This document shows positions 4,955 to 62,830 of a stretch of DNA of 64,000 bases, in pieces (position 1 is the stretch's first letter; each line of letters begins with the position of its first letter). This DNA is from an uncultured Gammaproteobacteria bacterium (GTDB lineage: Bacteria > Patescibacteriota > Patescibacteriia > 2-01-FULL-39-33), in assembly GCA_964536975.1 (NCBI GenBank), contig CAZHYS010000003.1:15419-79418 (forward strand), written 5' to 3'. The notes beneath the pieces were generated by a model, which was not told the origin of the DNA, ran no database searches, and saw only the letters and a program-made list of their open reading frames with translations. Position numbers and translations under genes: made by a program.

Positions 4955-5029
4955 TTTCGTTCCTCCTTAATGCGTTGCAGTCATGTTTCAGTTCCCGACA
5001 ATCTATTATATCTCAAATATCGCAGTTTG

Positions 5030-6067
5030 TCAACCCTTTAAAGTCGCGAGGAATGTTTGCAATTCTAGCGGCAGGTTGCTTGCAAAATGATATTGTTTTC
5101 CATCTGGTCCAGCAAAAGACAGCTCGCCCGCGTGGAGGAAAATTCTACCCGGGTCGGATTTTATTTTTTGTTTTCTGGCTTTGTATAATTTGTCGCCGAC
5201 TATCGGGTGACCGTAAGCCAGAAGATGGACGCGGATTTGGTGGGTACGGCCGGTGAGAATCTGGACTTCCAGCAGAGTATAATTTTTGTATCTTTTCACC
5301 ACCTTAAAAATAGTAAGCGCTTTTTTGCCTTCGTCCGCCTCGTTATCTTCACTGTTCGGCCGCGCGGCAAACAGCCCTTGTTTGGTGGAAGATCGGCTGA
5401 TGGGGAAATTTATTTCTGCGCTGTCGGCCGCGATTTCTCCGATGACTAAGGCAGAATATTTTTTGACAATAGTATGGTTTTTGAATTGCTGTTTGAAGTA
5501 ATCAAAAGCATCCTGCGTCCGCGGAACAATCATTAATCCGGAGACTTCCTTGTCCAAGCGGTGGACAATGCTGGCGCGCGCCGGATCTTCGCCGATTTTT
5601 TTCAACTCCGGATATTTGTCTGTCAGTAAATCCACCAACGTGTCGGTTTCTTCCTTGTCGGTCGGGTGAACCAGAATTCCCGCCGGTTTTTCAATAATAA
5701 GGAAGTCGGGGTTGTCGCTTATCACGGTTACTTTTTTGAATGGTTTGCCGGACTTTGAGGCGGGCGCGAGGGAAATCTTTTTTCCAGTAATCGGTAACTT
5801 GTGATCAGTAATCAGTAATTGAGTTTTTTTACTTGGAGTTTTCGCTTTTAGTTTTTCGTTTTTCGTTTTTCGCTTGATGTGGTCGCCCTCTTTAAGAAAA
5901 CAATGGACACTGGTCGGTTTATTATTGACTGAAATTTCTTTATTTAAAATTATTTTTTTGATTTGGGAGCGGGAAATGCCGGGAAGTTTTTCGGACAAAA
6001 AAACATCTAGCCGTTTTTTGGCATCCTGACTAGTTGCGGTAAAGGTGATATCATTGTTTGAAGGCAT
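5030..6067 (-). CDS. RluA-family 23S rRNA pseudouridine synthase (S4 domain + catalytic domain) with low-complexity in-frame insert
   Basis: It has an S4 N-terminus (RLDVFLSEKLPGISRSQIKKII) and the HRLDKEVSG catalytic motif. The insert at about 5790-5880 is built from word repeats gtaatcagtaat and cgtttttcgttttt. Confidence 0.8.
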   Translation of the reverse strand: MPSNNDITFTATSQDAKKRLDVFLSEKLPGISRSQIKKIILNKEISVNNKPTSVHCFLKEGDHIKRKTKNEKLKAKTPSKKTQLLITDHKLPITGKKISLAPASKSGKPFKKVTVISDNPDFLIIEKPAGILVHPTDKEETDTLVDLLTDKYPELKKIGEDPARASIVHRLDKEVSGLMIVPRTQDAFDYFKQQFKNHTIVKKYSALVIGEIAADSAEINFPISRSSTKQGLFAARPNSEDNEADEGKKALTIFKVVKRYKNYTLLEVQILTGRTHQIRVHLLAYGHPIVGDKLYKARKQKIKSDPGRIFLHAGELSFAGPDGKQYHFASNLPLELQTFLATLKG

Positions 6068-8680: not shown

Positions 8681-8706
8681 ACATCCGCCTCGGGCGGATG
8701 TTTTCT
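8681..8706 (+). terminator. intrinsic terminator after the GT2 gene
   Basis: The hairpin acatccgcctcgggcggatgt is followed by tttct. Confidence 0.55.
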
Positions 8707-8712
8707 ACTGTA

Positions 8713-9057
8713 ATCAATAAGGGTGGTCGCTAGTGGAGTCGCTTGCCTCGCCGAAGCTTTGCGAAGGCGGGAACCACTATTCCTGGACAGCGCTGGATGC
8801 TTACTATGGTCGCATCCATCGACGCTCTCCCGAGAATTCGGGATCGCTTCTGTCCGTCTCGTCAGCTATGGCTGACTTCGACCCTTCCCGATTCATCGGG
8901 ACGCTCTTTCTTTCCGTGACGCTAAGCGCGGCATTAATGGAATTGTTATGAAAGTGTGGTCGCTAGTGGAGTCGAACCACTGACCTTCCCGATTCATCGG
9001 GACGCTCTTTCTTTCCGTGACGCTAAGCGCGGCATTAATGGAATTGTTATGAAAGTG
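8713..9057. repeat. tandem and dispersed duplications of the tRNA-Val 3' end (100-bp unit x2 plus a diverged third copy)
   Basis: The 28-nt tRNA 3' end tggtcgctagtggagtcgaaccactgac occurs at 8958-8985 and in the real gene at 9058-9085. The unit 8885-8985 is repeated at 8986-9085. A partial copy lies at 8723-8741, next to a tcgccgaagctttgcgaaggcgg hairpin. Confidence 0.7.
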
Positions 9058-9131
9058 TGGTCGCTAGTGGAGTCGAACCACTGACCTCATCCACGTCAAG
9101 GATGCGCTCTAACCAACTGAGCTAAGCGACC
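9058..9131 (-). tRNA. tRNA-Val (anticodon GAC)
   Basis: The reverse complement reads GGTCGCT-TA-GCTCAGTTGGTTAGAGC-G-CATCC-tTGACgt-GGATG...GGTTCGACTCC...AGCGACC-A. Confidence 0.8.
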
Positions 9132-9182
9132 GTAATACTTATTTTAATAAAATTCTCAAAATAATTTGAAAATAGTGGTCAT

Positions 9183-9452
9183 TCTTTAAATATGCTTGTC
9201 TCGCCGTAGCCTTGGCGAAGGCGGAAGCTAAGCGACCAAATATCTAATTCCGGTAAGTTTTTAAAATTATTTAAAGACGTTGTCTACTCTTTAAATATGC
9301 TTGTCTCGCCGTAGCCTTGGCGAAGGCGGAAACTAAGCGACCAAATATCTAATTCCGGTAAGTTTTTAAAATTATTTAAAGACGTTGTCTACTCTTTAAA
9401 TATGCTTGTCTCGCCGTAGCCTTGGCGAAGGCGGAAACTAAGCGACCGTAAT
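9183..9452. repeat. about 2.6 copies of a 105-bp tandem repeat; each unit = hairpin tctcgccgtagccttggcgaaggcgga + agctaagcgacc (tRNA-Val 5' end)
   Basis: The units start at 9183, 9288 and 9393 and are near-identical. A single a/g difference separates copy 1 from copy 2. Confidence 0.75.
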
Positions 9453-21082: not shown

Positions 21083-22510
21083 ATGTCAGGACAAACGGGA
21101 ACAGAGTTGACGGAAGTTGTCGGGCAAGGAGTAGGTGGTGTGTTGGGAGGGTTTTTGGCCGTTGTTTTAGGCCGGAGAGACGGCGGATCAAATGGCGACG
21201 GGCACATCAACCCTGAGACTTTTTTGACCGCCGGCCAAGAGTCGGGATTCAGGATTGATATGGCCGGCATGCTCGGTGGTGTCCTCGATGCCCAATTAGC
21301 CAATGTCGTATCCATGGAGGCGGCATGCCAAAAGATGAGAGAGCGGATCGAGGCGAGCCGGGTATTGGTTGCTGGACTAACCGTTGGTGTTGAGCCGGCG
21401 GTCAAACCGCCCGAGCCGGAGGAGGACGGCCGGAGTCCGACCAAAAAAGAAGAGGAAAAAGCGGCTGGCACCGAAACGGAACAGTCGGATGAGGCTATTG
21501 CCAAAATGTCGGCGCCGGAACACATCGTCTCAGTTTTGAAGCCCATTAAGGGCAGGGCGGTTGTTGAAGTCGCTCATATTAAGACCGAAGGAGTCAAACG
21601 CGGTGTATCGGCGATGAGCATTAACTCTGCCTTACATTGCCTTCAGCAGGCGGATGCCATTGAAAGAGTTGGCCGTGGCACGATCCGCAAGGCAGCGGGC
21701 TGGAAAGATTATTTGGTTAAGTTTCTTTCCAGACACAAGAAAAATGGCAAACCCAGGGATGGCGCGATTCCGGTCAAATGTTGCCAAAGTGCGCGAACCG
21801 ACGCCCCACAAAAACAGACAAAGTCTGTACCGAAACCCCCGGGTGTTTCTCGCCGTCGTTCCGGCCCAACCTTATTTGGCCTAACCAAGGACATTTTGGC
21901 CGCAGAGTATCCGGAAGGGCTGACTTATCAGGAGATTGCCGAGCGGCTCTGCGCCTCTGCCGATTTTCCCAACAAAGACAATGACAGCGTCGTCAATCAG
22001 TTGATGACGATGGCTTGTCAACATAAGGAGGATTTTGTCAGAAGCAAAGAACGGCCTGTTCGGTTGACATTGGTTGTGTCGGGAGTGTCGGAAGAAGCGT
22101 TACCGTCGGCCGAAGACGATATTTTTGGCAGTGGGCGGATTCAAGCGTCGCCGGCGCCTGAAAAAAAGTCGGCAAAAGATCGCCTGCAGGAGCGCTTGCG
22201 CGGAAGGAAAAATGTCGGCCATGCATTTGAGCCGGATGCTCCTTCGCTTAATCGCCCCAAAGATGAAGCTGGGCGAGCTGCCTGGATGAAAGCGATTGAA
22301 CAGGTGGTCAATCATACGGAACACTCCCAAATGTCGCGCGACGACATTGCCGCCGTGTTTATGGGGAATAAAAGCCGATTCTTCTGCGTAAACGCGGAAT
22401 TGGATCCGAGCCAGATCAGAGATATCGTCTCAACGACGATAAATGATATGATTCGGACCAAAAAACTGCGGACCTGTTCCCCCGGCATCGTGACGACAGG
22501 AACTTTCTGA
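21083..22510 (+). CDS. hypothetical protein (475 aa), compositionally atypical (higher GC); possible winged-helix/HARE-HTH-like segment
   Basis: An aaggag RBS lies 7 nt upstream and a terminator follows at 22530-22566. The segment GLTKDILAAEYPEGLTYQEIAERL looks HTH-like. No catalytic motif is recognised. Confidence 0.5.
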   Translation: MSGQTGTELTEVVGQGVGGVLGGFLAVVLGRRDGGSNGDGHINPETFLTAGQESGFRIDMAGMLGGVLDAQLANVVSMEAACQKMRERIEASRVLVAGLTVGVEPAVKPPEPEEDGRSPTKKEEEKAAGTETEQSDEAIAKMSAPEHIVSVLKPIKGRAVVEVAHIKTEGVKRGVSAMSINSALHCLQQADAIERVGRGTIRKAAGWKDYLVKFLSRHKKNGKPRDGAIPVKCCQSARTDAPQKQTKSVPKPPGVSRRRSGPTLFGLTKDILAAEYPEGLTYQEIAERLCASADFPNKDNDSVVNQLMTMACQHKEDFVRSKERPVRLTLVVSGVSEEALPSAEDDIFGSGRIQASPAPEKKSAKDRLQERLRGRKNVGHAFEPDAPSLNRPKDEAGRAAWMKAIEQVVNHTEHSQMSRDDIAAVFMGNKSRFFCVNAELDPSQIRDIVSTTINDMIRTKKLRTCSPGIVTTGTF

Positions 22511-22529: not shown

Positions 22530-22566
22530 CCGCGTAGCAGGCAAAGTGCTTGCTACGCGGTTTTTT
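22530..22566 (+). terminator. intrinsic terminator
   Basis: The hairpin ccgcgtagcaggcaaagtgcttgctacgcgg is followed by tttttt. Confidence 0.65.
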
Positions 22567-22817
22567 GTTGGGTTATTTTTGTAATAAACTCCGCTCATAG
22601 AGATAGGAATGGCGGGGCTGATCTGGACGCGGATCGGCCCTTTTGTTTTTTGTAAAACCATCCTCCAATTATGTGGTTTCATCCCACAACAAATTTAATA
22701 CACTTTTTTAAAAATAGGGCCAGAAGTTTTTTAATAAATTCAAGTCATTGGATATTGTTTTAAAATTAAAAATTAAAAATTGGAAATTACAAAACAGCCC
22801 AAACGGGCTGTTTTGTC

Positions 22818-23075
22818 TGTGGGTGGCTACTGGGATAATCTTCGCGAATCGCCAACAGAAACTTGGCGATTTGCTCCGCCCTGGGTGGCGGCCAATCCTG
22901 CTCGCTTCGCCGAATCTAGGCGAGCGCCAGCCCTGCCTGCCGGCAGGCAGCTCGGATCGGCCTGAAGTTTCGCTTTGGCGCTCGCCTTCCGTCTCGCTTC
23001 TCGCTCAACTTGCCACCCGTTCAACTCCCGACCCAAATTAAAAAGATGGACAAAATAATGTCCATCTTTTTAATT
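22818..23075. repeat. GC-rich about 240-bp segment bounded by a direct repeat of the tRNA-His 3' end, with an inverted partial copy and central palindrome
   Basis: The string gggtggctactggga at 22822-22836 matches 23078-23092 in the tRNA. The stretch 23010-23040 is an imperfect inverted copy (...caactcccgacccaaatt). The palindrome aaaagatggacaaaataatgtccatctttt lies at 23041-23071. Confidence 0.6.
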
Positions 23076-23149
23076 TGGGTGGCTACTGGGAGTTGAACCC
23101 AGACTAACGGGACCACAACCCGCTGTTCTACCGCTAAACTATAGCCACC
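23076..23149 (-). tRNA. tRNA-His (anticodon GTG, encoded G-1)
   Basis: The reverse complement reads G-GTGGCTA...GCGGG-tTGTGgt-CCCGT...GGTTCAACTCC...TAGCCAC-C. Confidence 0.75.
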
Positions 23150-23273
23150 ATATAATAACACTTAACAATTAACATTTAACTGATGCGCTATTCTTGGCAA
23201 TTAATCATTAGCAATTTACAGTATAACTTCAGACCGGTTAAAGGTTAACTGTCAATTGTTAACTATTAACTTA

Positions 23274-23345
23274 TGCCCCCAGTAGGAATCGAACCTACAT
23301 CACAGGTTCCGGAAACCTGCGTTCTATCCATTGAACTATGAGGAC
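23274..23345 (-). tRNA. tRNA-Arg (anticodon CCG)
   Basis: The reverse complement reads GTCCTCA-TA-GTTCAATGGATAGAAC-G-CAGGT-tTCCGga-ACCTG...GGTTCGATTCC. The acceptor stem has two G-U pairs. Confidence 0.7.
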
Positions 23346-23368: not shown

Positions 23369-23442
23369 CGTCCGCGGCAGGATTCGAACCTGCGACCTAC
23401 AGCTTAGAAGGCTGTTGCTCTATCCAGCTGAGCTACGCGGAC
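23369..23442 (-). tRNA. tRNA-Arg (anticodon TCT)
   Basis: The reverse complement reads GTCCGCG-TA-GCTCAGCTGGATAGAGC-A-ACAGC-cTTCTaa-GCTGT...GGTTCGAATCC...CGCGGAC-G. Confidence 0.8.
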
Positions 23443-23509
23443 ATGATCAACTTACTATTATTATTAATTTGTAAGTTTTGCCAGTATTATATATGCTTTA
23501 GCACCGTTG

Positions 23510-23800
23510 CATTTTCCTCCCCCTTTACAAGGGGGAGGTAGGAGGGGGTAAATTAATTATGATATTTACCTCAATTACCCCTCCCTAACCCGTTCCTGGG
23601 CAGAGCTAATCGCTCCCAATGGTCGCGATTATCTACGCTCGCTTCGCATCGCTTCTGCCCGTCCTTCGGACCCCTTATAAATGGGAGGGAAAGAATAATC
23701 GTAAACAATGCTAACAATTTTTATAATTAAATTTTTAAAATTTTATTTCTTTACTCGTCTCGCCGTAGCCTTGGCGAAGGCGGAAGCTACGCGGACATAA
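23510..23800. repeat. CCTCC hairpin repeats (23516-23549, 23671-23690) and hairpin + cgaaggcggaagcta + tRNA-Arg(TCT) 5'-end copy (23752-23795)
   Basis: The string ctcgtctcgccgtagccttggcgaaggcggaagctacgcggac matches the tRNA 5' end (g)agctacgcggac at 23432-23442. Confidence 0.65.
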
Positions 23801-30378: not shown

Positions 30379-30759
30379 ATGGACGAGAAAATTCTCCAAG
30401 AGCTGAAAAATCAGCTTGAAGAAAAAAAAGAAAGAATAATCGCCAACTTAGAAAGCATCGGCAATCGAGTGAAGGGCGATGACAACGATGAGATAAATTA
30501 CAACGCCGAGTTTCCCGATTACGGCGATTCCAGCGAGGACAGCGCGGTGGAAGTGGCTGATTATACCAAAAATTTGTCTTTTGAACGGGGGCTAGAAGGC
30601 GAATTGCGCGACGTGGAAGCGGCGCTCAAAAAAATAGCAGAAGGGGGATATGGTATTTGCAAGCACTGCGGCAAGCAGATAGAGCTGGAGCGATTGAAGA
30701 TCCGCCCCGAATCATCTTCTTGCGTCGCCTGCAAACAAGCGCTCAAGAATGGGGAATGA
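30379..30759 (+). CDS. DksA/TraR-family C4-type zinc-finger protein
   Basis: It has CKHCGKQIELERLKIRPESSSCVACK (CxxC-17-CxxC) and an N-terminal coiled coil. The ORF track starts earlier at 30283. Confidence 0.65.
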   Translation: MDEKILQELKNQLEEKKERIIANLESIGNRVKGDDNDEINYNAEFPDYGDSSEDSAVEVADYTKNLSFERGLEGELRDVEAALKKIAEGGYGICKHCGKQIELERLKIRPESSSCVACKQALKNGE

Positions 30760-30763
30760 AATT

Positions 30764-30797
30764 CCCTCCCCTTTACAAGGGGAGGGAAGGGAGGGGT
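30764..30797. repeat. CCTCC hairpin repeat copy
   Basis: The sequence is ccctcccctttacaaggggagggaagggagggg. Confidence 0.7.
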
Positions 30798-44404: not shown

Positions 44405-44790
44405 CCATTTTCCCTCCCCTTTATAAGGGGAGGGCAGGGAGGGGTATTATCACCCTGTCCGCCTTTATATTACGAACGAGGGAGCCTTTATAATTCTTCC
44501 CCCTCCTTACGAAGGAGGGGGTAGGGGGAGGTCAGATTAATTTATCCCCCCAATTTTTCCTCCCCTTACCAAGGGGAGGAGCCTGCCCTGAGCGAAGCCG
44601 AATGGGTATCTCCCCCCCCCTTGTTCTAAAGAAGGCATCTCTGTTCTTCCCCCTCCTTACGAAGGAGGGGGTAGGGGGAGGTCAGATTAATTTATTTCCA
44701 CCGCCCCCGCCAAAACCGATTACAATTTTGGCGACCCCTCCTTCGGACAAGGAGGGGTAATAAAAATACGAGGGGAGGGTTTTTTATGTG
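44405..44790. repeat. cluster of at least 5 CCTCC hairpin repeats incl. an exact 54-bp duplication (44504-44545 = 44644-44697)
   Basis: Member sequences are ccctcccctttataaggggaggg, ccccctccttacgaaggagggggtagggggagg (twice), cctccccttaccaaggggagg and cccctccttcggacaaggagggg. The shared motif cctgccctgagcgaagccgaatgg is also at 52150 and 57590. Confidence 0.8.
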
Positions 44791-44910: not shown

Positions 44911-46944
44911 ATGGCAAAAATCTTAGAAATCATCAAAGACTCAAGTTATAATCTTTCAATTTTTGATCAGAAACTGATTGACGAGCTGGAAGGTAAAGTC
45001 ACCACAAAAGACGGCAAATCTTATGTTGTTTGCGCTATCCGAGATAAAGAAATAATTTTGAAGCCGGAGGAGGTTGTCCGCCAGCTCTATGCGATGAAAC
45101 TGCTTGAAGATTACGGCTATCCAAAACAAAGAATCAAATTTGAACACGCAATCCATTTTGGCCGTGAGGTAAAATCTGCCGACATTGTTATTTTTGACAA
45201 AGACCGCCCGACTGTTGAATACATCATTGTTGAAATTAAAAAACCAAAACTCCAAGACGGAAAAAACCAGCTCCGCTCCTACACCAACGCCACTGGTGCG
45301 CCGATTGCCGTTTGGACCAATGGTGGACAAATTTCGCATTACAACCGCAAAGACCCAAATTACTTTGAAGACATTACCGATATTCCAAAAGCCGACCAAA
45401 CGCTTGAAGATATTTTGAAAGAAAGATTTACTCTTAAAGACTTAATCATCAAAGACAAAATCCCGAACGAGGGGAAATCGCTCAAAACCATTATTCAGGA
45501 AATGGAAGATGAAGTTTTGGCAAATGCGGGCGTAGATGTCTTTGAAGAAGTTTTTAAACTTATTTTCACCAAACTGTACGATGAATTACAGAGCAAAAAA
45601 GACAAAATGCGTCTGGAAATTTATCTTGAGGATAAATTAAGCAAAGAAGATCGCGGAGATTATGACAAAGTAAAAGAAATTTTGGCAAAAATTGACGATT
45701 CCAGTTTCAGAGTTTTGGAATTTAGAAACACAGGTCAATCCGAGAGCGAACTAAAAAATAAAATTCAAAAACTTTTTGACGAAGCCAAAGCCAAATGGCC
45801 GGGCGTTTTTGACGAAGCAAGCCAAATTCAGCTTTCGCCCTCTCATCTTTCCGTCAGCGTTTCCAGTTTGCAGGATATAAAACTTTTCAATTCCAATCTG
45901 CAAATCATAGACGAAGCCTTTGAATACTTGGTCAATAAATCATCAAAAGGCGAAAAAGGCCAATACTTCACGCCTCGTCATGTGATTGATATGTGCGTCA
46001 AAATGCTCAATCCGAAAGCTGGCGAATACATGGTAGATACTGCCGCCGGTTCTTGCGGATTTACCGTTCATACGATTTTTCAAATCACCGGACATTTATT
46101 CCAAAACACCGACATTTCCGAGGAAGAAAAAGAAAATGTGCTTAAAGTATTCGGTATTGATTTTGATGAAAAAGTCGTGCGCGTTGCTCGCACTTTAAAC
46201 TTGATCGCCGGAGACGGAAATACCAACGTTTTACATCTCAACAATCTTGATTATGAACGCTGGAATGAATCAATCCAAAATCGCGACTGGCTGGAAGTGT
46301 ACGGAGCGGGATTAAAACGCCTCGAAGCTCTACAAAAAGATAAAAGTTCCTACAAAGAATTTAATTTTGATATTCTCATGGCAAATCCGCCATTTGCCGG
46401 AGACATCAAAGAATCGCGCATAATCCACAAATACGATCTTGGCTACAACGAAAAAAACAAACCAAAATCAAAAGTTGGGCGCGATATTTTGTTTATCGAA
46501 AGAAACTTAAACTTTTTGAAGCCGGGCGGAAGAATGGCGATTGTTTTACCACAAGGCCGTTTTAATAATACTTCTGACAAGGCAATTCGCGAGTATATCG
46601 CCGAAAAAGGCAGAATCCTTGCCGTAGTCGGGCTTCATGTAAACACTTTTAAACCGCACACGGGAACAAAAACCAGCGTGCTTTTTGTGCAGAAATGGGA
46701 CGACAAGCTTTGCCCGAAAGTGGAGGATTATCCGATTTTCTTTGCCGTTTCCGAAAAATCCGGCAAGGACAATTCCGGCGAGTATGTTTTCGTCAAAAAC
46801 GGCAACAATCAGCCGAAACTAGATAAAAATGGGCACTTGATAATCAATCATGACTTGCACAATCACGACGGCGAATTGCCCGACGGCGTAGCGGAAAAGT
46901 TTATTGAATGGGCGAAGTCGGAAAAATTAAGTTTTTGGAAATAA
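44911..46944 (+). CDS. restriction-modification fusion protein: N-terminal PD-(D/E)xK (HsdR_N-like) domain + gamma-class N6-adenine methyltransferase (BcgI-like Type IIB / Type I HsdM-like)
   Basis: It has the nuclease-like motif ADIVIFD...EYIIVEIKKP. The MTase motif I is VDTAAGSCGF and motif IV is NPPF (LMANPPFAG). No HsdR is nearby. Confidence 0.7.
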   Translation: MAKILEIIKDSSYNLSIFDQKLIDELEGKVTTKDGKSYVVCAIRDKEIILKPEEVVRQLYAMKLLEDYGYPKQRIKFEHAIHFGREVKSADIVIFDKDRPTVEYIIVEIKKPKLQDGKNQLRSYTNATGAPIAVWTNGGQISHYNRKDPNYFEDITDIPKADQTLEDILKERFTLKDLIIKDKIPNEGKSLKTIIQEMEDEVLANAGVDVFEEVFKLIFTKLYDELQSKKDKMRLEIYLEDKLSKEDRGDYDKVKEILAKIDDSSFRVLEFRNTGQSESELKNKIQKLFDEAKAKWPGVFDEASQIQLSPSHLSVSVSSLQDIKLFNSNLQIIDEAFEYLVNKSSKGEKGQYFTPRHVIDMCVKMLNPKAGEYMVDTAAGSCGFTVHTIFQITGHLFQNTDISEEEKENVLKVFGIDFDEKVVRVARTLNLIAGDGNTNVLHLNNLDYERWNESIQNRDWLEVYGAGLKRLEALQKDKSSYKEFNFDILMANPPFAGDIKESRIIHKYDLGYNEKNKPKSKVGRDILFIERNLNFLKPGGRMAIVLPQGRFNNTSDKAIREYIAEKGRILAVVGLHVNTFKPHTGTKTSVLFVQKWDDKLCPKVEDYPIFFAVSEKSGKDNSGEYVFVKNGNNQPKLDKNGHLIINHDLHNHDGELPDGVAEKFIEWAKSEKLSFWK

Positions 46945-46970
46945 ATTATAATTTTAAATTACACAATCTT

Positions 46971-48053
46971 ATGAAGAAAAAAAATATTGAAGAATTAAAT
47001 AATGAATTTTTTGAAAAAGAAGATTCTGACGATGAATCTTTAAAACTTAAAGGGCCAATTATTAGTTATGGGGCGGACTACACTCTCGATTCAATTCGAC
47101 AGTACGTAAATGAGAGTAAGCAAATTATTGTACAGCCAAGCTTCCAAAGAAAATTTGTTTGGGATATAAAAAAGGCCAGCAAATTAATAGAATCTTTCAT
47201 TCTTGGTTATCCCGTGCCGAACATTTTGCTTGGGAGAGATCCTGATACTGAGGTCATGGAAGTAATAGATGGCCAGCAGAGAATTTTATCTATATGCGAC
47301 TTCTTTAAGGGCAGATTTAGAGACGAAAAAGTTTTTAAGTTAGCTGGCGATATTGACCAAAAATTTTTAAACAAAACCTTTGACGACCTAGATGAAGCTA
47401 TTCAAAAGAAATTAAGAAACGCGGTTTTGAAGGCTGTGGTCTTTGTCTATCCAAAAGATGACCCAAATATAAAATTTACAGCATTTCAACGTATTAACAC
47501 GGGGAGCGTTGTTTTAAACCAGCAAGAAATCAGAAACTGCATTTATGGGGGATCGTTAAATGATTTACTATTTAAAATAAATGAATACAACGAAGAATGG
47601 AGAGAACTCCTTGCTAAAAAACCGGATAAAAGAATGAAGGATGTAGAAACAATCTTGAGATTTTTTGCCGCTTACTTTAAAGGAAAAGATTATGAAAAGC
47701 CAATCACTAAATTTCTTAACGAATTTATGAATAAGAATAAAAATCTTTCTGAAGAAAAAGGAGCCGAATGGCAAGAATTATTTAACCAAACACTATCTAT
47801 CATTGTAAAAAATATTGGTAGCTCATTTCCCCGCACATCAAAATCAAAAACATTTAATAGAGCAGTTTTTGAATCTGTTATGACCGCCATAGCAGAACTG
47901 AAGAAAGAAAATAGGCTAAAAGTCAAATATTTAAAACGAAACTATACCAAACTAGTAGAAGATCCTAATTATCTTGATTCGGTAACTTCACAAACTTCCG
48001 ACAAGAAAAACTATAAAAACAGGATTGAAATAGCAATTAAAATGCTCTCGTGA
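46971..48053 (+). CDS. DUF262 (ParB/Srx-like NTPase/nuclease superfamily) domain protein
   Basis: The DGQQR motif (VIDGQQRILSI) is present. The ORF track starts at 46908, overlapping the RM gene stop. I use the ATG at 46971. Confidence 0.65.
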   Translation: MKKKNIEELNNEFFEKEDSDDESLKLKGPIISYGADYTLDSIRQYVNESKQIIVQPSFQRKFVWDIKKASKLIESFILGYPVPNILLGRDPDTEVMEVIDGQQRILSICDFFKGRFRDEKVFKLAGDIDQKFLNKTFDDLDEAIQKKLRNAVLKAVVFVYPKDDPNIKFTAFQRINTGSVVLNQQEIRNCIYGGSLNDLLFKINEYNEEWRELLAKKPDKRMKDVETILRFFAAYFKGKDYEKPITKFLNEFMNKNKNLSEEKGAEWQELFNQTLSIIVKNIGSSFPRTSKSKTFNRAVFESVMTAIAELKKENRLKVKYLKRNYTKLVEDPNYLDSVTSQTSDKKNYKNRIEIAIKMLS

Positions 48054-48063
48054 TTTTATATGT

Positions 48064-48624
48064 ATGAACGTTATTTTGGAAAGAAAAAAATATGTTGTTC
48101 GATTACTCGAGAATATAGAGAATTATCCTTCTACCAATCAATTCAAGCAAGAAATGATGACCTTTTCGTATGTTATAGTTTGTGGCGCTATTGAATTTAT
48201 GACAGAAACCATAATACAAGATTGGTTGAGTAAAACAATCAAACATCATAAAAGCTCATCCTACTATCGGGGGAGAAAATATGTTCAATATTTTTTAGAC
48301 ATTCAATCTCAAGCGCGAGAAAAAAATATTGACGATTTTCATAGTACAAACTTAGATAGCATTAGAAATCTTATTAAAGAGATGGCGGGAGAAACAGCGC
48401 GGAATAAATTTAATAACTTGTTTCAAAGTGCTCAAAACACTTTGGCATTGCAGCCGGATTTAAACGAGAGACTTAAACGAATTACCGATACTCGTCATTA
48501 TTTAGCCCACGGACAAAAAGTCCCAAATGATATACAACCCAATGTCCGGGAATTAAGAGAAGATTTTCTTTTTATATACAAGCATATTATAAATAATATC
48601 AAAAAATGTTTACCAAAAGTATAA
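48064..48624 (+). CDS. hypothetical protein, putative HEPN-like (Rx4H motif RHYLAH near C-terminus)
   Basis: It is alpha-helical with a C-terminal R-x4-H motif. It sits between the MTase and S subunit, like the abortive-infection and PrrC-like passengers of Type I loci. Confidence 0.35.
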   Translation: MNVILERKKYVVRLLENIENYPSTNQFKQEMMTFSYVIVCGAIEFMTETIIQDWLSKTIKHHKSSSYYRGRKYVQYFLDIQSQAREKNIDDFHSTNLDSIRNLIKEMAGETARNKFNNLFQSAQNTLALQPDLNERLKRITDTRHYLAHGQKVPNDIQPNVRELREDFLFIYKHIINNIKKCLPKV

Positions 48625-48631
48625 AATAACT

Positions 48632-50050
48632 ATGCAATATTCAGTTGTAAAATTCAAAGGAGTTTTAGTCGATAATGACATATTCAGATTCGATGCTGAT
48701 TATTTTTATCCAAAATCATACAACCTTTATAAAACGATAATAAATAAAAATTTTGCAAGAGTGAAAGAAAGTTTTAATGTTACAAAATTAGCTGGTTTTG
48801 AATACACCAAATATTTTACTGATCCAAATATCAATTCAGACGATTTCTATATTGTTTTAACCAGTAAGAATATTCAAAACGAAGAATTGGTCTTAAATGA
48901 ATATCTTAAAATTGACAAAAAAGTTGCTGACGAATTTTTGAAGCGTTCTAACCTTAAAAAAGGAGATGTTGTTTTGTCATATACTGGGGAATATAGAAGA
49001 GCATTAGTTCTAGAAGAGAACGATTTTCAACTTGGACCAAATATCTGCCTCATTCGTAGCAAAAATAAAAATATCGATTCTTATTATTTATCTACTTTTT
49101 TAAATTCTAACGCTGGTCAGCTTTTACTTGATCGTGAAAAAACACTTTCTGCACAACCTACTGTCGCGATGTCAAGAATAAGAGAAATACCAATTCCGGT
49201 GTTAGATATAGATTTTCAAAATCGAATTGGTGAAATTATTACATCATCAAAAACAAAAAGAAAATCTGCAAACAATCTCTATTTCCAAGCCGAACAATTA
49301 CTCCTTTCCGACTTGGGGCTTTTGGACTGGAAGCCAAAGCACGAACTGGCTTTTGTCAAAAACTTTTCCGCAACACAAGAATCCGAGCGTTTTGACGCAG
49401 AGTATTTTCAACCAAAATACGAGGAAATCGTTGATGCAGTGAAAAAATACAAAGGTGGATTTGATGAATTGGGCAATTTGGTAAAAATCAAAGACAAGAA
49501 TTTTACGCCCAAAGACAACGAGCAATACAAATACATTGAGCTTGCCAACATTTCATCAAACGGCGAAATAAATGGCTACATTGAAAATTTTGGCAATGAA
49601 CTGCCGTCAAGAGCGCGTCGTAAAGTACAAAAAGGCGATCTGATTGTTTCGTCCATTGAAGGATCACTTGAAAGTATTGCTTTAATAACGGAAGACTGGA
49701 AAAACGCTTTATGCTCCACCGGATTTTTTGCTGTCAATTCAGATAAAATTAATTCCGAAACCTTGCTTATTATATTAAAAACAAAAATCGGGCAATTGCA
49801 ACTAAAGAAAGGTTGCAAAGGAACAATTTTAACCGCTATCGGCAAAGAGGAATTGTCCAAAATAGTTTTGCCAAAAATTGATTCAAAAACGCAACAAGAA
49901 ATCAAAAAGAAAATAACTGAGATGTACGAAACGAAAAAATTATCTAAATCATTACTTGAAATTGCCAAGCGAGGCGTGGAAATGGGAATAGAAAAAGACG
50001 AGCAAGAAGCAGAAAAATGGATCAATAAAGAGGTTAAAAAAATTAATTAA
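48632..50050 (+). CDS. hsdS: restriction-modification specificity (S) subunit with two TRDs
   Basis: It has the HsdS/BcgIB-like duplicated target-recognition architecture and conserved spacer helices. Confidence 0.75.
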   Translation: MQYSVVKFKGVLVDNDIFRFDADYFYPKSYNLYKTIINKNFARVKESFNVTKLAGFEYTKYFTDPNINSDDFYIVLTSKNIQNEELVLNEYLKIDKKVADEFLKRSNLKKGDVVLSYTGEYRRALVLEENDFQLGPNICLIRSKNKNIDSYYLSTFLNSNAGQLLLDREKTLSAQPTVAMSRIREIPIPVLDIDFQNRIGEIITSSKTKRKSANNLYFQAEQLLLSDLGLLDWKPKHELAFVKNFSATQESERFDAEYFQPKYEEIVDAVKKYKGGFDELGNLVKIKDKNFTPKDNEQYKYIELANISSNGEINGYIENFGNELPSRARRKVQKGDLIVSSIEGSLESIALITEDWKNALCSTGFFAVNSDKINSETLLIILKTKIGQLQLKKGCKGTILTAIGKEELSKIVLPKIDSKTQQEIKKKITEMYETKKLSKSLLEIAKRGVEMGIEKDEQEAEKWINKEVKKIN

Positions 50051-50053
50051 CAT

Positions 50054-50950
50054 ATGTCCACCTACTACAACCCAAACAGAGACGCCTCTTGGAACTATGG
50101 CGGAAATAATTGGAAATTAAGCCGGTCAAAGATTGATTTGTTTTTGGAATGTCCAAGATGTTTTTATTTGGATAATAAACTCGGCACAAAGCGAGTGCCC
50201 GGATTCCCTTTTTCTATAAATAGCGCGGTGGATTATCTTTTAAAGCAGGAGTTTGATTCCTATCGTGTTAAAAACGAACAACATCCACTTCAAAAAGAAT
50301 ATGGTATAGATGCTCGGCCAATGTCGCACGCCGAGCTGGATGAATGGCGGCGGAATTTTGGCGGCGTCAGATATCTGCACGAACCGACCGGACTGTTGGT
50401 GACCGGCGCGATTGATGATTTGTGGGTGACTATCCCTCCCACCTCCCCTAGCCCCTCCTCGGGCAGGAGGGGAAAGTTAGAATATTCGGCAAACCCCTCT
50501 GTGTCTCCCCTTGGAAAGGGGAGAAAGTCAGAAGATTTGGCAAACCTCTCCGCGTCTCTCCTTGGAAAGGGGGGAAAGTTTGAGCCGGAATGTATTGTGG
50601 TTGATTATAAAGCTACAGCCAAAGATGAGGCCGTAAAGGAATTAGATAAAGAGTGGCAAGATGGCTACAAACGGCAAATGGAGGTGTACCAGTGGCTACT
50701 GCGGAAAAATGGTTTGAAAGTCTCTGATGTTGGTTATTTTGTTTATTGCACCGGCAAAATGGATCGCCAGGCTTTTGACAAGAAGATTGAATTTGATGTT
50801 AATTTAATTGAACATAGAGGTGATGATTCTTGGGTAGAGAAAACTCTTTTTGACATCAAGAAGTGTCTGGACGGCGACGTCATCCCGAAGTCTGGCAAAA
50901 GTTGTGATTGGTGCGCTTATTTCGCGGCCAGAAAAAAATCAGAAAAATAA
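50054..50950 (+). CDS. Cas4-like / RecB-family PD-(D/E)xK nuclease with 4-Cys cluster, carrying an in-frame insertion of CCTCC hairpin repeats
   Basis: The N-terminal CPRCFY and C-terminal CDWCAY form a CxxC pair. The core reads IVVDYK and the QxxxY-like motif is MEVYQWLL. The inserted repeats lie at 50440-50590 inside the frame. Confidence 0.55.
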   Translation: MSTYYNPNRDASWNYGGNNWKLSRSKIDLFLECPRCFYLDNKLGTKRVPGFPFSINSAVDYLLKQEFDSYRVKNEQHPLQKEYGIDARPMSHAELDEWRRNFGGVRYLHEPTGLLVTGAIDDLWVTIPPTSPSPSSGRRGKLEYSANPSVSPLGKGRKSEDLANLSASLLGKGGKFEPECIVVDYKATAKDEAVKELDKEWQDGYKRQMEVYQWLLRKNGLKVSDVGYFVYCTGKMDRQAFDKKIEFDVNLIEHRGDDSWVEKTLFDIKKCLDGDVIPKSGKSCDWCAYFAARKKSEK

Positions 50951-50974
50951 ATCTCCGGAGACATCTCCGGAGAT
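50951..50974. repeat. right boundary palindrome atctccggagac-atctccggagat
   Basis: It matches the left boundary at 44806-44841. Confidence 0.7.
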
Positions 50975-51058
50975 CGCCAGTTGATTTTTGGTGAATAATG
51001 TGAAAAGATTATAATTGGTAAGAATACAATTAATATATTGGTCGGTGATATTTTAATT

Positions 51059-51559
51059 ATGCATGACAAAGAAAAAAATTACGCTTTTATTGATAGCCAA
51101 AATCTGAACCTGGGAATTCAGAGCTTGGGGTGGAAGTTGGATTACAAAAGATTTAGGATTTATTTGCGGGAGAAGTATGGCGTTGAAGTTGCCTATTTGT
51201 TTATTGGCTATATACCAGGAAATCAGGATTTATATTCATCGCTTCAATCTTGCGGGTATGTTTTGGTTTTCAAGCCGACCATTCCCGATCAGAATGGAAA
51301 TATAAAAGGAAATGTTGATGCCGACTTGGTTTTGCAGGCGTTATTGGATTATGAAAAATATGACAAGGCAGTTATCATCACAAGCGATGGAGATTTTTAT
51401 TCTTTGGTTAAATACTTATATCGGCAGGGCAAATTAAAATTTGTCATGAGCCCATATATCAAAACTTGTTCCATATTGCTCAAGAAAACAGCACAAGAAA
51501 GAATTATTTTTATGGATAATCTAGAGAAAAAACTTAGTTATAATAAAAAACACCGCTAA
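51059..51559 (+). CDS. NYN/LabA-like PIN-fold domain protein (putative RNase)
   Basis: It has YAFIDSQNL, DADLV and ITSDGDF motifs typical of NYN domains. Confidence 0.6.
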   Translation: MHDKEKNYAFIDSQNLNLGIQSLGWKLDYKRFRIYLREKYGVEVAYLFIGYIPGNQDLYSSLQSCGYVLVFKPTIPDQNGNIKGNVDADLVLQALLDYEKYDKAVIITSDGDFYSLVKYLYRQGKLKFVMSPYIKTCSILLKKTAQERIIFMDNLEKKLSYNKKHR

Positions 51560-57582: not shown

Positions 57583-57690
57583 CACTCCCTATCCCGTTCG
57601 GCTTCGCTCAGGGCAGTCTCCTCCCCTTAGTAAAGGGAGGGGAGAACGGCCCCCAAATAAGGGATGGCAGGAGGGGTAAGGGAGGTTTTT
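57583..57690. repeat. CCTCC hairpin repeat copy with shared cggcttcgctcagggcag motif
   Basis: The sequence is ccctatcccgttcggcttcgctcagggcagtctcctccccttagtaaagggagggg. Confidence 0.7.
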
Positions 57691-62424: not shown

Positions 62425-62830
62425 TAGTTTATAAAGTCTATAAAGTTCATAAAGTTTGTAAAGTCAGGAACTAGGAGTTAGGAATTAGCGTTTAGCGATT
62501 AGGGGAAAATGCAATAATTATAAAGTCAAAAGCCTATAAAGTTCGTAAAGCTTGTGGTGAGCGAAGTCGAACCATCGGATGTAGTGGCGGGTAGCGGTTC
62601 CCCCTCCTGGTCAGGAGGAGGGGGATAGGGGGAGGTTGGGAAGGGATATTTCCGACAATGCCCCCGCTCGATTCGTAGAGACGCGATTCATCGCGTCTAT
62701 AGTAGAGATGTTCCGATCCCGAGGACTCGGAAGGGGCGCCTCTTTTTGTTTATGGTTGGGGATTTCTTAGGGATGGGGCTCTTGTCTCGCCGTAGCTTAT
62801 GCGAAGGCGGATGCCCCCGTCTGGTTTGAC
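62425..62830. repeat. word repeats (ataaagt), second copy of the about 110-bp CCTCC-hairpin element, gacgcgattcatcgcgtc palindrome, and tctcgccgtagcttatgcgaaggcgga hairpin variant
   Basis: The stretch 62586-62700 aligns with 41146-41262. Confidence 0.7.

Follow-up and report, generated by a model that had tools for sequence, protein, structure and literature searches.

The Patescibacteria (CPR) have tiny genomes, for which descriptions of mobile elements and structured non-coding RNAs are few. The insert analysed here lies at the 3' end of a tRNA-His gene within a 64-kb stretch of DNA from a bacterium of this group, referred to below as the window. It combines features of several described kinds of element, and each of the nearest of these fails at least one defining test. 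Cis-mobilizable elements (CIMEs) are a documented concept (PMC5704250), and together with other integrase-less derivatives of ICEs and IMEs they share with the present modules direct repeats of a tRNA 3' end, a regenerated tRNA, the lack of integrase and transfer genes, and tandem accretion at the site, as in the arrays around tRNA-Val in the window and the partial upstream copy of the element in contig L097. The modules differ from them in being only about 200-350 bp long, in having a conserved, covarying single-strand structure, in occurring at different tRNAs with matched repeats and an inverted T-arm copy, and in occupying tRNA 5' ends as well; moreover, no related full-size ICE or IME with an integrase was found for them in viral, phage and plasmid collections.

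Integron cassettes with their attC sites, and the folded attP of the CTX phage, resemble the modules in a layout of repeat, cargo, inverted copy, hairpin and repeat, in an imperfect palindrome with an asymmetric bulge whose shape is kept while its sequence varies, and in the formation of arrays. However, the target of the modules is a tRNA terminus rather than attI or dif, the GTTRRRY/RYYYAAC boxes are missing and the cargo is non-coding; the resemblance is architectural only, and a dependence on IntI or Xer would be hypothetical. Candidate attC boxes were rejected on inspection as T-arm sequences (GTTCrAnT), which do not follow the RYYYAAC...GTTRRRY consensus. The omega-RNAs of IscB and IsrB (HEARO) and the RNAs of IS200/IS605 elements, of which non-autonomous copies exist, likewise join a variable target segment of about 16 nt to a GC-rich, highly structured scaffold of about 200 nt and a terminator. 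In contrast to the insertion described here, which regenerates the tRNA, IS200/IS605 elements do not duplicate their target, and the modules have neither a HEARO match in Rfam nor an IscB, IsrB or TnpB gene nearby.

Finally, MITEs, REP-like elements and SINEs are also small, non-coding, structured, trans-dependent and flanked by duplicated target, and 5'-shortened copies are a further likeness to SINEs and LINEs. The 14-17 nt duplicated from a target at the 3' end of a tRNA also bring casposons to mind. The modules have no terminal inverted repeats and no Cas1, on which grounds a casposon-like origin was rejected; they also have no reverse transcriptase, and their copy number in the available sequence is low. 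Targeting of tRNA termini with an inverted copy of the target is absent from the MITE and SINE classes. The modules match no described RNA or mobile-element family.

The tRNA-His locus and its relatives

The features of the locus are as follows (window coordinates; strand where one applies).

22789-22816: bidirectional terminator hairpin native to the tRNA operon (ACAAAACAGCCC/GGGCTGTTTTGT), whose homologue in L110 lies directly after tRNA-His
22820-22835: distal copy of the 16-nt tRNA-His repeat, the original tRNA-His 3' end displaced by the insertion
22836-23030, proposed sense plus: structured core of family 1 (223 bits with covariance model R1; also consensus folds and pair counts)
22844-22874: hairpin H1
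22883-22889 with 23012-23018: helix P1 (GGGTGG/CCACCC), which closes a three-way junction
22890-22898 with 22954-22962: helix P2, whose loop has an extra two-hairpin insertion of 55 nt
22965-22969 with 23007-23011: helix P3
23019-23029, plus: inverted copy GTTCAACTCCC of tRNA-His positions 53-63 (T-loop and 3 nt of the T-stem)
23031-23080: perfect palindrome of 22+22 nt with a 6-nt loop (arms 23031-23052 and 23059-23080)
23076-23091: proximal repeat copy TGGGTGGCTACTGGGA (tRNA positions about 60-75, on the plus strand)
23077-23149, minus: intact tRNA-His(GTG) with G-1 at 23149 (ARAGORN; Rfam tRNA, 64.9 bits)

ARAGORN and Rfam call the tRNA-His(GTG) gene at 23077-23148 on the minus strand. Its last 16 nt, TGGGTGGCTACTGGGA, which run from the T-loop to just beyond the discriminator, occupy two sites in the 64-kb window, one on each side of the insert, at an offset of 256 bp. 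The earlier note on this DNA had described a repeat of 15 nt, which is borne out and in fact one base longer; the concern that it might be too short or too common to matter is dispelled by the 15-mer GGGTGGCTACTGGGA, which occurs just twice in 64 kb (at 22821 and 23077) with up to two mismatches allowed, at a chance expectation of 0.06. No additional tRNA-His end farther away, of the kind that would mark a larger island, was found in the 64-kb window. The bracketed insert comprises 240 bp (22836-23075) with about 61% GC overall, and the contrast in composition noted before holds, insert GC reaching 56-67% against 22-35% in the flanking intergenic DNA. Short internal inverted repeats are present, as had been observed, at three sites: 22844-22855/22863-22874, 22918-22929/22976-22987 and an 18-nt palindrome at 22933-22950. 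The ends of 22836-23075 are not linked by an inverted repeat of the kind that bounds MITEs.

The palindrome abuts tRNA-His with no spare base, its outer bases overlapping the tRNA 3' end. It is as perfect as previously stated, but its arms measure 22+22 nt in place of the 30 bp then given. Its form is terminator-like, and it could serve as a bidirectional hairpin common to the tRNA operon on the minus strand and the putative element RNA on the plus strand. The adjacent GTTCAACTCCC is complementary to 23088-23098 at 11 of 11 positions and fits the family motif GTTCrAnTCCC. When folded as single-stranded DNA, the inverted copy, the palindrome and the tRNA end form one long imperfect hairpin with an asymmetric bulge of 6-8 nt (-34.1 kcal/mol, z -11.9). 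An inverted, internally deleted copy of the tRNA had been proposed on this side of the palindrome, and one half of that proposal stands, in that the T-loop/T-stem part tracks the neighbouring tRNA. The other half does not: GCCACCC, to the left of the inverted copy, was rejected as tRNA-His-derived since it is a motif invariant in the family and is also found beside tRNA-Gly in L012.

The direction of the event is indicated by related genomes. The PNPase encoded in the window is 65-69% identical to that of Ca. Buchananbacteria MAGs, 71-82% identical to that of Logan/ENA contigs and 71-72% identical to those of L110 and L108, and several relatives share synteny for the tRNA-Arg/tRNA-His cluster that lies upstream of rpsO-pnp. 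The empty tRNA-His site that the earlier note had suggested searching for exists in five of them (L011, L012, L014, L108 and L110), where a simple terminator follows tRNA-His after 4-8 nt, and the L110 terminator tacaaaacaccccgttaaggggtgtttt aligns with window positions 22786-22816, immediately beside the distal repeat. Because tRNA-His leads directly into a terminator in these relatives, and that of L110 is homologous to the one in the window, the distal 16-mer is the original tRNA end. About 256 bp have accordingly been added at the tRNA-His 3' end, leaving the gene whole and displacing its original end and terminator. Relatives with the same sequence and no indel, the case envisaged as refuting an insertion, contrast with those seen here, which are without the insert and keep a homologous native terminator. 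Same-strain Logan assemblies are identical in sequence at the locus, with no polymorphism, and the closest relative, L106 (82%), has lost the tRNA cluster from the corresponding position. The Logan contigs that cover the locus end within or beside the tRNA cluster.

A structured core shared by five members

Homologues of the insert, with cores of about 150-230 nt, were detected by BLAST, nhmmer and pattern scanning in four other contigs from Patescibacteria or low-GC metagenomes: L012 (the same contig as L093), which comes from Ca. Buchananbacteria; L095; L097, a 508-kb contig of a Patescibacteria MAG; and L100. In a BLAST of the insert against the loci of relatives, L012 matched between tRNA-Leu and tRNA-Gly. 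Two 17-nt copies of the tRNA-Gly 3' end enclose the homologous GC-rich segment there, with 193 bp between the repeats (the corresponding figure used for the window is 256 bp at tRNA-His), and after the element comes GTTCGATTCCC, a match to the T-loop of tRNA-Gly at 11 of 11 positions. A pattern built from the block common to the insert and L012 retrieved L095, L097 and L100 among metagenome contigs. The other metagenome matches to the pattern, which made up most of them, were discarded as chance hits in high-GC coding DNA. The reading as a protein-coding fragment was rejected in the same way, since a 20-nt match to a viral terminase gene (WVAANPA) and both relaxed viral-pattern matches were of this kind.

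The family, with five known members, is marked by the invariant blocks CCTGGGTGGnnGCCAATCCTGC, TCGGATCGGC and GCCACCCGTTCrAnTCCC. Its covariance model R1 scores the members at 105-223 bits, the window core being the highest at 223 bits, and detects no further copy in the window, nor any in related loci that amount to about 1.7 Mb. The cores have 58-61% GC, as against 28-45% in their genomes. Members agree in a constant 3' part, while the 5' part becomes progressively shorter in the order L097, L095/L100, window and L012, the 5' domain being incomplete in the last two. Terminator hairpins show no homology from one member to another; in the window, L095 and L097 the inverted copy leads into such a hairpin within about 5-15 nt, and L012 has none at the boundary. 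No intact tRNA stands beside the element in L095 and L097. In L097, the DNA beyond the element carries a restriction-modification cassette and an XRE regulator.

The insert is highly structured, with covarying helices, in keeping with the earlier suggestion that it be folded. The consensus fold consists of H1 followed by the three-way junction of P1, P2 and P3, to which fuller members add a helix P0' around H1. In the five-sequence alignment, 92.6% of cells are paired, compared with 29-47% in slid-partner controls, and 11 pairs show compensatory changes (reached in 0 of 500 shuffles), all of them in H1 and P3. P1 and P2 never vary, and support from covariation is thus limited to the other helices; P0' covaries between L095/L100 and L097. 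G.U pairs, which turn into A.C mismatches when the opposite strand is read, arise in five to six independent places on the plus strand only, with one invariant G.U on the minus strand, and a hairpin with a T-run lies 3' of the element on the plus strand in the window, L095 and L097. Because of this wobble tally and the terminator that follows, the plus strand, antisense to the tRNA, is favoured as the RNA sense, and the strand of a core RNA is likely to be the plus strand, opposite the tRNA. The core is probably expressed as RNA. Sigma-70 promoter scans upstream on the plus strand returned no convincing site for such an RNA, and in the window a terminator lies on either side of the core.

Searches of known families gave no identity for the core. 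At the Rfam gathering threshold only seven tRNAs pass in the window, and the cores in L095, L097 and L100 are uncovered; permissive thresholds, applied to the window and the other members, added only tRNAs and spurious miRNA-like hairpin matches. HEARO omega-RNA was rejected, being absent from the Rfam lists even at E<=10 for the window and E<=5 for the other members. A tmRNA, including the permuted form, was likewise set aside: ARAGORN reports none, and the members have neither a tag reading frame nor a stop in common. A retroviral-type primer-binding site, complementary to the mature 3' end including CCA, fits L012 only and misfits the window, L110, L095, L100 and tRNA-Val. Spurious ORF translations of the core had no match at E<=1 in a collection of 5.8 billion proteins, and BLAST of the family against phages and plasmids found nothing. 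A neighbouring ORF of 475 aa is an orphan, its homologue search being empty.

Modules at other tRNA ends

Related modules occur at two further tRNA genes of the window, at both ends of tRNA-Val and at the 5' end of tRNA-Arg(tct), and a duplicated tRNA terminus bounds each of them.

8722-9056, plus: related insert at the tRNA-Val(GAC) 3' end
8722-8740: distal copy of the tRNA-Val end, adjoining the native terminator at 8683-8706
8741-8862: family-2 domain at the tRNA-Val 3' end
9183-9449, plus: 2.5 tandem units of 105 nt upstream of tRNA-Val
23445-23784, plus: insert Y at the tRNA-Arg(tct) 5' end
23516-23538: REP-like hairpin of Y
23564-23667: GC-rich family-2 domain of Y, with homology to the L097 element in its 5' domain
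23757-23784: 28-nt module GTCTCGCCGTAGCCTTGGCGAAGGCGGA of Y
23785-23798: distal copy AGCTACGCGGACAT (tRNA-Arg(tct) positions -2 to 12), with the proximal copy at 23431-23444; the two copies are exact

Since the DNA next to the distal AGCTACGCGGACAT has its homologue in the intergenic region native to L110 and L108, about 354 bp were inserted at the tRNA-Arg(tct) 5' end. The insert at the tRNA-Val 3' end includes a tandem array of two 101-nt units that carries 31 nt of the 3' part of tRNA-Val, and each 105-nt unit upstream of the same gene contains the 28-nt module and, after it, the initial 12 nt of tRNA-Val; units match at 99-100% in both arrays (101 nt x2 and 105 nt x2.5). The 28-nt module is common to the tRNA-Val upstream units and the distal tRNA-Arg fragment site. 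Family 2, modelled as R2, has three known members, namely those at tRNA-Val 3' and tRNA-Arg(tct) 5' in the window and one downstream of tRNA-Arg(tct) in L110 (8356-8500). In L110, the inverted copy GTTCGATTCCTAG matches the T-loop and T-stem of the neighbouring tRNA at 13 of 13 positions and is followed by a terminator hairpin and then the tRNA.

Taken across loci, the direct repeat equals the end of the neighbouring tRNA for His and Gly and, apart from one mismatch, for Arg(tct), and the inverted copy equals the neighbouring T-arm for His (11/11), Gly (11/11) and L110 Arg (13/13), and partly so at tRNA-Val. Repeat lengths are not uniform and range from 14 to 31 nt. The 64-kb window holds one family-1 and two family-2 copies, and about 1.7 Mb of related loci yielded no extra copy. 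In a scan of 73 tRNAs in 1.67 Mb for 14-nt end copies with at most one mismatch within 700 nt, the 3' end recurs downstream at five to six of the 73 and the 5' end upstream at two; both controls, the 3' end upstream and the 5' end downstream, yield 0 of 73. What emerges are conserved, covarying, GC-rich modules at both ends of tRNA genes, bounded by duplicated tRNA termini, and the fragments of tRNA genes that they leave behind are a source of confusion in annotation (compare PMC9897764).

Mobility, mechanism and competing explanations

In the explanation that we hold, with moderate confidence, the insert is one of a family of miniature modules, structured, non-coding and non-autonomous, for which the tRNA termini of Patescibacteria (CPR) are the sites of insertion. 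Its layout comprises a conserved core, a short inverted copy of the target T-loop and T-stem, and an unconserved terminator-like hairpin, and the cores recur at different tRNAs with repeats matched to each one's own tRNA. The alternative offered by the earlier note, a structured small RNA that uses the tRNA end, comes close to the picture given by the comparative data. To judge from strand preference, the modules are probably transcribed antisense to the tRNA. A core RNA of about 200 nt would be made from the strand opposite the tRNA and would end at the shared bidirectional terminator; if its transcript started upstream of the core, the 5' part of the RNA would be antisense to the tRNA 3' end. 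If mobile, the modules would constitute a very small tRNA-targeting element whose matched direct and inverted segments suggest an unusual kind of target recognition.

A scan of the window's 40 larger non-overlapping ORFs, to the exclusion of a dozen shorter ones, revealed no integrase, in particular no tyrosine recombinase or IntI, and neither a transposase nor a reverse transcriptase; any such enzyme would act in trans. IscB or IsrB domains (RuvC with or without HNH) are missing from the neighbouring ORFs, as is a TnpB gene nearby. Insertion would be carried out by an enzyme encoded elsewhere. The repeats and the inverted copy are matched to their targets, which points either to a duplication derived from the target or to a folded hairpin that reproduces the tRNA end, as with integron attC and the CTX phage attP. 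The preferred mechanism, by analogy, is site-specific recombination on a folded hairpin site mimicking the tRNA end, with integron attC, or a cis-mobilizable element reduced to its att sites, as the model. Nearly as likely would be a target-primed process with a staggered cut, in which the repeat would be a target-site duplication. A conventional fixed attP is disfavoured because the repeats are target-matched for every tRNA, and the inverted copy likewise in three clear cases.

Several observations sit uneasily with a mobile family. The apparent copy number is low for a mobile element, the non-homologous terminators suit old resident genes better than recent transposition, and a classical attP model does not explain one core with repeats for different tRNAs. 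Further points against it are the small number of known sequences (five in family 1 and three in family 2), the uneven repeat lengths, the elements of L095 and L097 without an intact neighbouring tRNA, the want of a convincing promoter, and the absence of terminal inverted repeats, a partner enzyme and a circular or excised form.

A bolder form of the proposal, which we regard as doubtful, is that these are non-coding cassettes homing to tRNA ends through nucleic-acid mimicry or target pairing and represent a previously undescribed class. The folded hairpin might reproduce the acceptor/T-arm duplex, or an RNA might carry an anti-3'-end segment together with the T-arm copy. The target would then be set by short matched segments of the element rather than by a fixed, protein-recognised att site, and the cargo would be a new CPR-specific structured RNA.

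Alternatively, the module could be a resident CPR sRNA gene of about 200 nt, with a 5' segment complementary to the tRNA 3' end and a 3' part that mimics the T-arm, acting by pairing, processing, as a decoy or as a guide, with its repeats kept by selection. The repeats are perfect (16/16 and 17/17) even though the distal copy lies outside any gene, the layout is one of a variable 5' segment of 15-17 nt, a conserved scaffold and a terminator, and wobble pairs favour the plus strand. The terminators are unconserved and the stems have drifted by compensation, as in old genes, and core GC (58-61%) stands above that of the genomes (28-45%). However, the distal copy is the original tRNA end beside the original terminator, which implies an origin by insertion rather than by evolution of a guide; no promoter is so positioned that the 5' segment would be transcribed; the 5' domain is incomplete in L012 and the window; and modules at tRNA 5' ends do not suit an anti-3'-end guide. 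We therefore consider a resident gene unlikely. Were it correct, the modules would form a new structured RNA family, and the upstream flank, antisense to the tRNA 3' end, may or may not be part of the RNA.

The earlier note's principal reading, attL/attR remnants of an element integrated at tRNA-His and since decayed, fares differently in its two parts: the insertion and the att-like repeats are supported, and the decay of a larger island is not, as a compact conserved unit recurs. In its full form, in which an island or prophage bearing an integrase was deleted down to 240 bp and the GC-rich DNA is a leftover attP arm, it appears improbable to us. A repeat from the T-loop to the tRNA end is a classical signature of tyrosine integrases. 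The use of tRNA-His by integrative elements in the lineage is suggested by relative L011, in which a 548-aa ORF of a large serine recombinase abuts tRNA-His, with nothing that ties this ORF to the modules, and the restriction-modification cassette and XRE regulator of L097 could be cargo. Yet the integrase that had been looked for is missing from the larger window ORFs that were scanned. Large-island decay is further disfavoured because two independent minimal copies exist, with 256 bp at tRNA-His and 193 bp at the L012 tRNA-Gly between repeats; because in the window, L095 and L097 a terminator stands within about 5-15 nt of the inverted copy, a spacing that random deletion would not repeat; and because the helices covary, which double-stranded, protein-binding arms do not need to do. 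Nor was a related full-size element found in viral, phage and plasmid collections.

Retroposition of the plus-strand RNA in the manner of a SINE, by target-primed reverse transcription at staggered nicks with the repeat as target-site duplication, would account for repeats that are target-derived for every tRNA and mostly 14-17 nt long. It would also fit a right boundary of the window insert that coincides with the end of the terminator T-tract (23075/23076), a constant 3' part with a progressively shorter 5' part resembling 5' truncation, the lack of terminal inverted repeats and the conserved RNA structure. On the other hand, the scanned window ORFs contain no reverse transcriptase, terminator sequences are not shared by the copies, L012 is without a terminator at its boundary, and the model gives no reason to expect an inverted copy of the target ahead of the terminator. 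To our knowledge, retroposition of this kind has not been established in bacteria, and we judge it distinctly improbable here.

A wholly local origin without any mobile element, through replication slippage, template switching or tandem duplication around quasi-palindromic tRNA arms, with the GC-rich segments as ordinary structures of leaders and trailers, agrees with the perfect tandem arrays with tRNA-end pieces that flank tRNA-Val and, by quasi-palindrome correction, with the perfect palindrome arms, but is largely refuted by the same cores at unrelated loci and tRNAs across genomes, and we give it hardly any weight. Local duplication may nevertheless be the source of the tandem arrays and of the perfection of the palindrome.

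Insertions and modules at tRNA-Arg(tct) and tRNA-Val(GAC)

Insertion of structured DNA in the window extends to both sides of the tRNA cluster, with a second insertion lying opposite the tRNA-His end, and modules of related kinds occur at other loci. The corresponding features of the window are as follows:

23431-23444, 23445-23784 and 23785-23798: second insertion, of approximately 354 bp, flanking the tRNA-His cluster opposite the first
8683-9131 and 9132-9449: related material on either side of tRNA-Val(GAC)
23516-23538, 30768-30786, 44416-44434 and 57620-57638: copies of a REP-like hairpin
62540-62830: intergenic stretch with possible module remnants

An exact 14-nt repeat of the tRNA-Arg(tct) 5' end forms both borders of the second insertion, whose cargo comprises a family-2 domain (a GC-rich module related to the tRNA-His insert) and the conserved 28-nt module found next to duplicated tRNA 5' ends. 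The insertion lies between the tRNA operon and its apparent native promoter.

On the 3' side of tRNA-Val(GAC), a family-2 domain is accompanied by a duplicated tRNA end that adjoins the native terminator, and by a perfect array of two 101-nt units that includes 31 nt of the tRNA. On the 5' side, 105-nt units are arranged in 2.5 tandem copies, each of which ends with the initial 12 nt of tRNA-Val.

REP-like hairpins and further tRNA-end fragments

The REP-like G/C hairpin CCTCCCCTTTACAAGGGGAGG with its GGGAGGGG tail occurs at least four times in the window, against a chance expectation of 0.02. At least the copy at 30768 lies shortly past the end of a gene, a zf-dskA ORF that ends at 30759. The intergenic stretch at 62540-62830 harbors a tRNA-3'-end-like fragment with a terminal CCA on the minus strand (approximately 62555-62578). 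It also contains a G/C hairpin, and the 28-nt module recurs there in variant form (62784-62811). No tRNA gene lies nearby, and the stretch may represent a graveyard of the same modules.

In a Ca. Staskawiczbacteria MAG (L079, 8645-8975), the tRNA-Lys 3' end is duplicated over 17 nt at a distance of 299 nt downstream; this copy continues into the T-loop, where two small hairpins (42 nt) separate G57 from A58. In addition, repeated GTTAAC/TTAACT words are abundant in the spacer that separates tRNA-His from the adjacent tRNA-Arg, both in the window (23149-23275), where they build a 32-nt imperfect inverted repeat, and in a relative (L108, 4764-4812).

Surroundings of the tRNA-His locus

Features bordering the locus in the window are:

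21083-22510: 475-aa ORF, 54% GC, directly left of the tRNA-His locus
22530-22560: terminator stem of this ORF
approximately 23760: start of Logan contigs L001-L005
23106-23151: ends of Logan contigs L006-L008

The 475-aa ORF matched only itself among 5.8 billion proteins and contained no Pfam domain, and its terminator stem shares an 11-nt word with the tRNA-Arg(tct) 5' end. In independent Logan assemblies of the window organism, contigs are interrupted at the tRNA cluster and at the inserts that flank it. In a related MAG (L011, 20-1666), a 548-aa ORF, whose start coincides with the contig end, appears on visual inspection of the sequence to resemble a large serine recombinase; it abuts and reads into the tRNA-His 3' end, and probably belongs to an integrated element of conventional type that occupies the tRNA also used by the window insert.

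Defense and restriction-modification genes

44911-51559: defense island of low GC content (32-40%)

The island encodes a fused N6-methylase/HsdR-N protein, GmrSD-N, a HEPN protein, a 472-aa ORF without a domain, a PD-(D/E)XK nuclease, and an NYN domain protein. In the Patescibacteria MAG contig L097, a type II restriction-modification pair and an XRE regulator lie immediately to the right of the family-1 element (homologous to the core of the tRNA-His insert), and, judging from matching ORF translations, similar GC-rich stretches (2700-2790 and 4998-5249) would flank these genes. Since the methylase cluster comprises 18 near-identical members across many contigs, the restriction-modification genes and their flanking stretches may constitute a mobile cassette.
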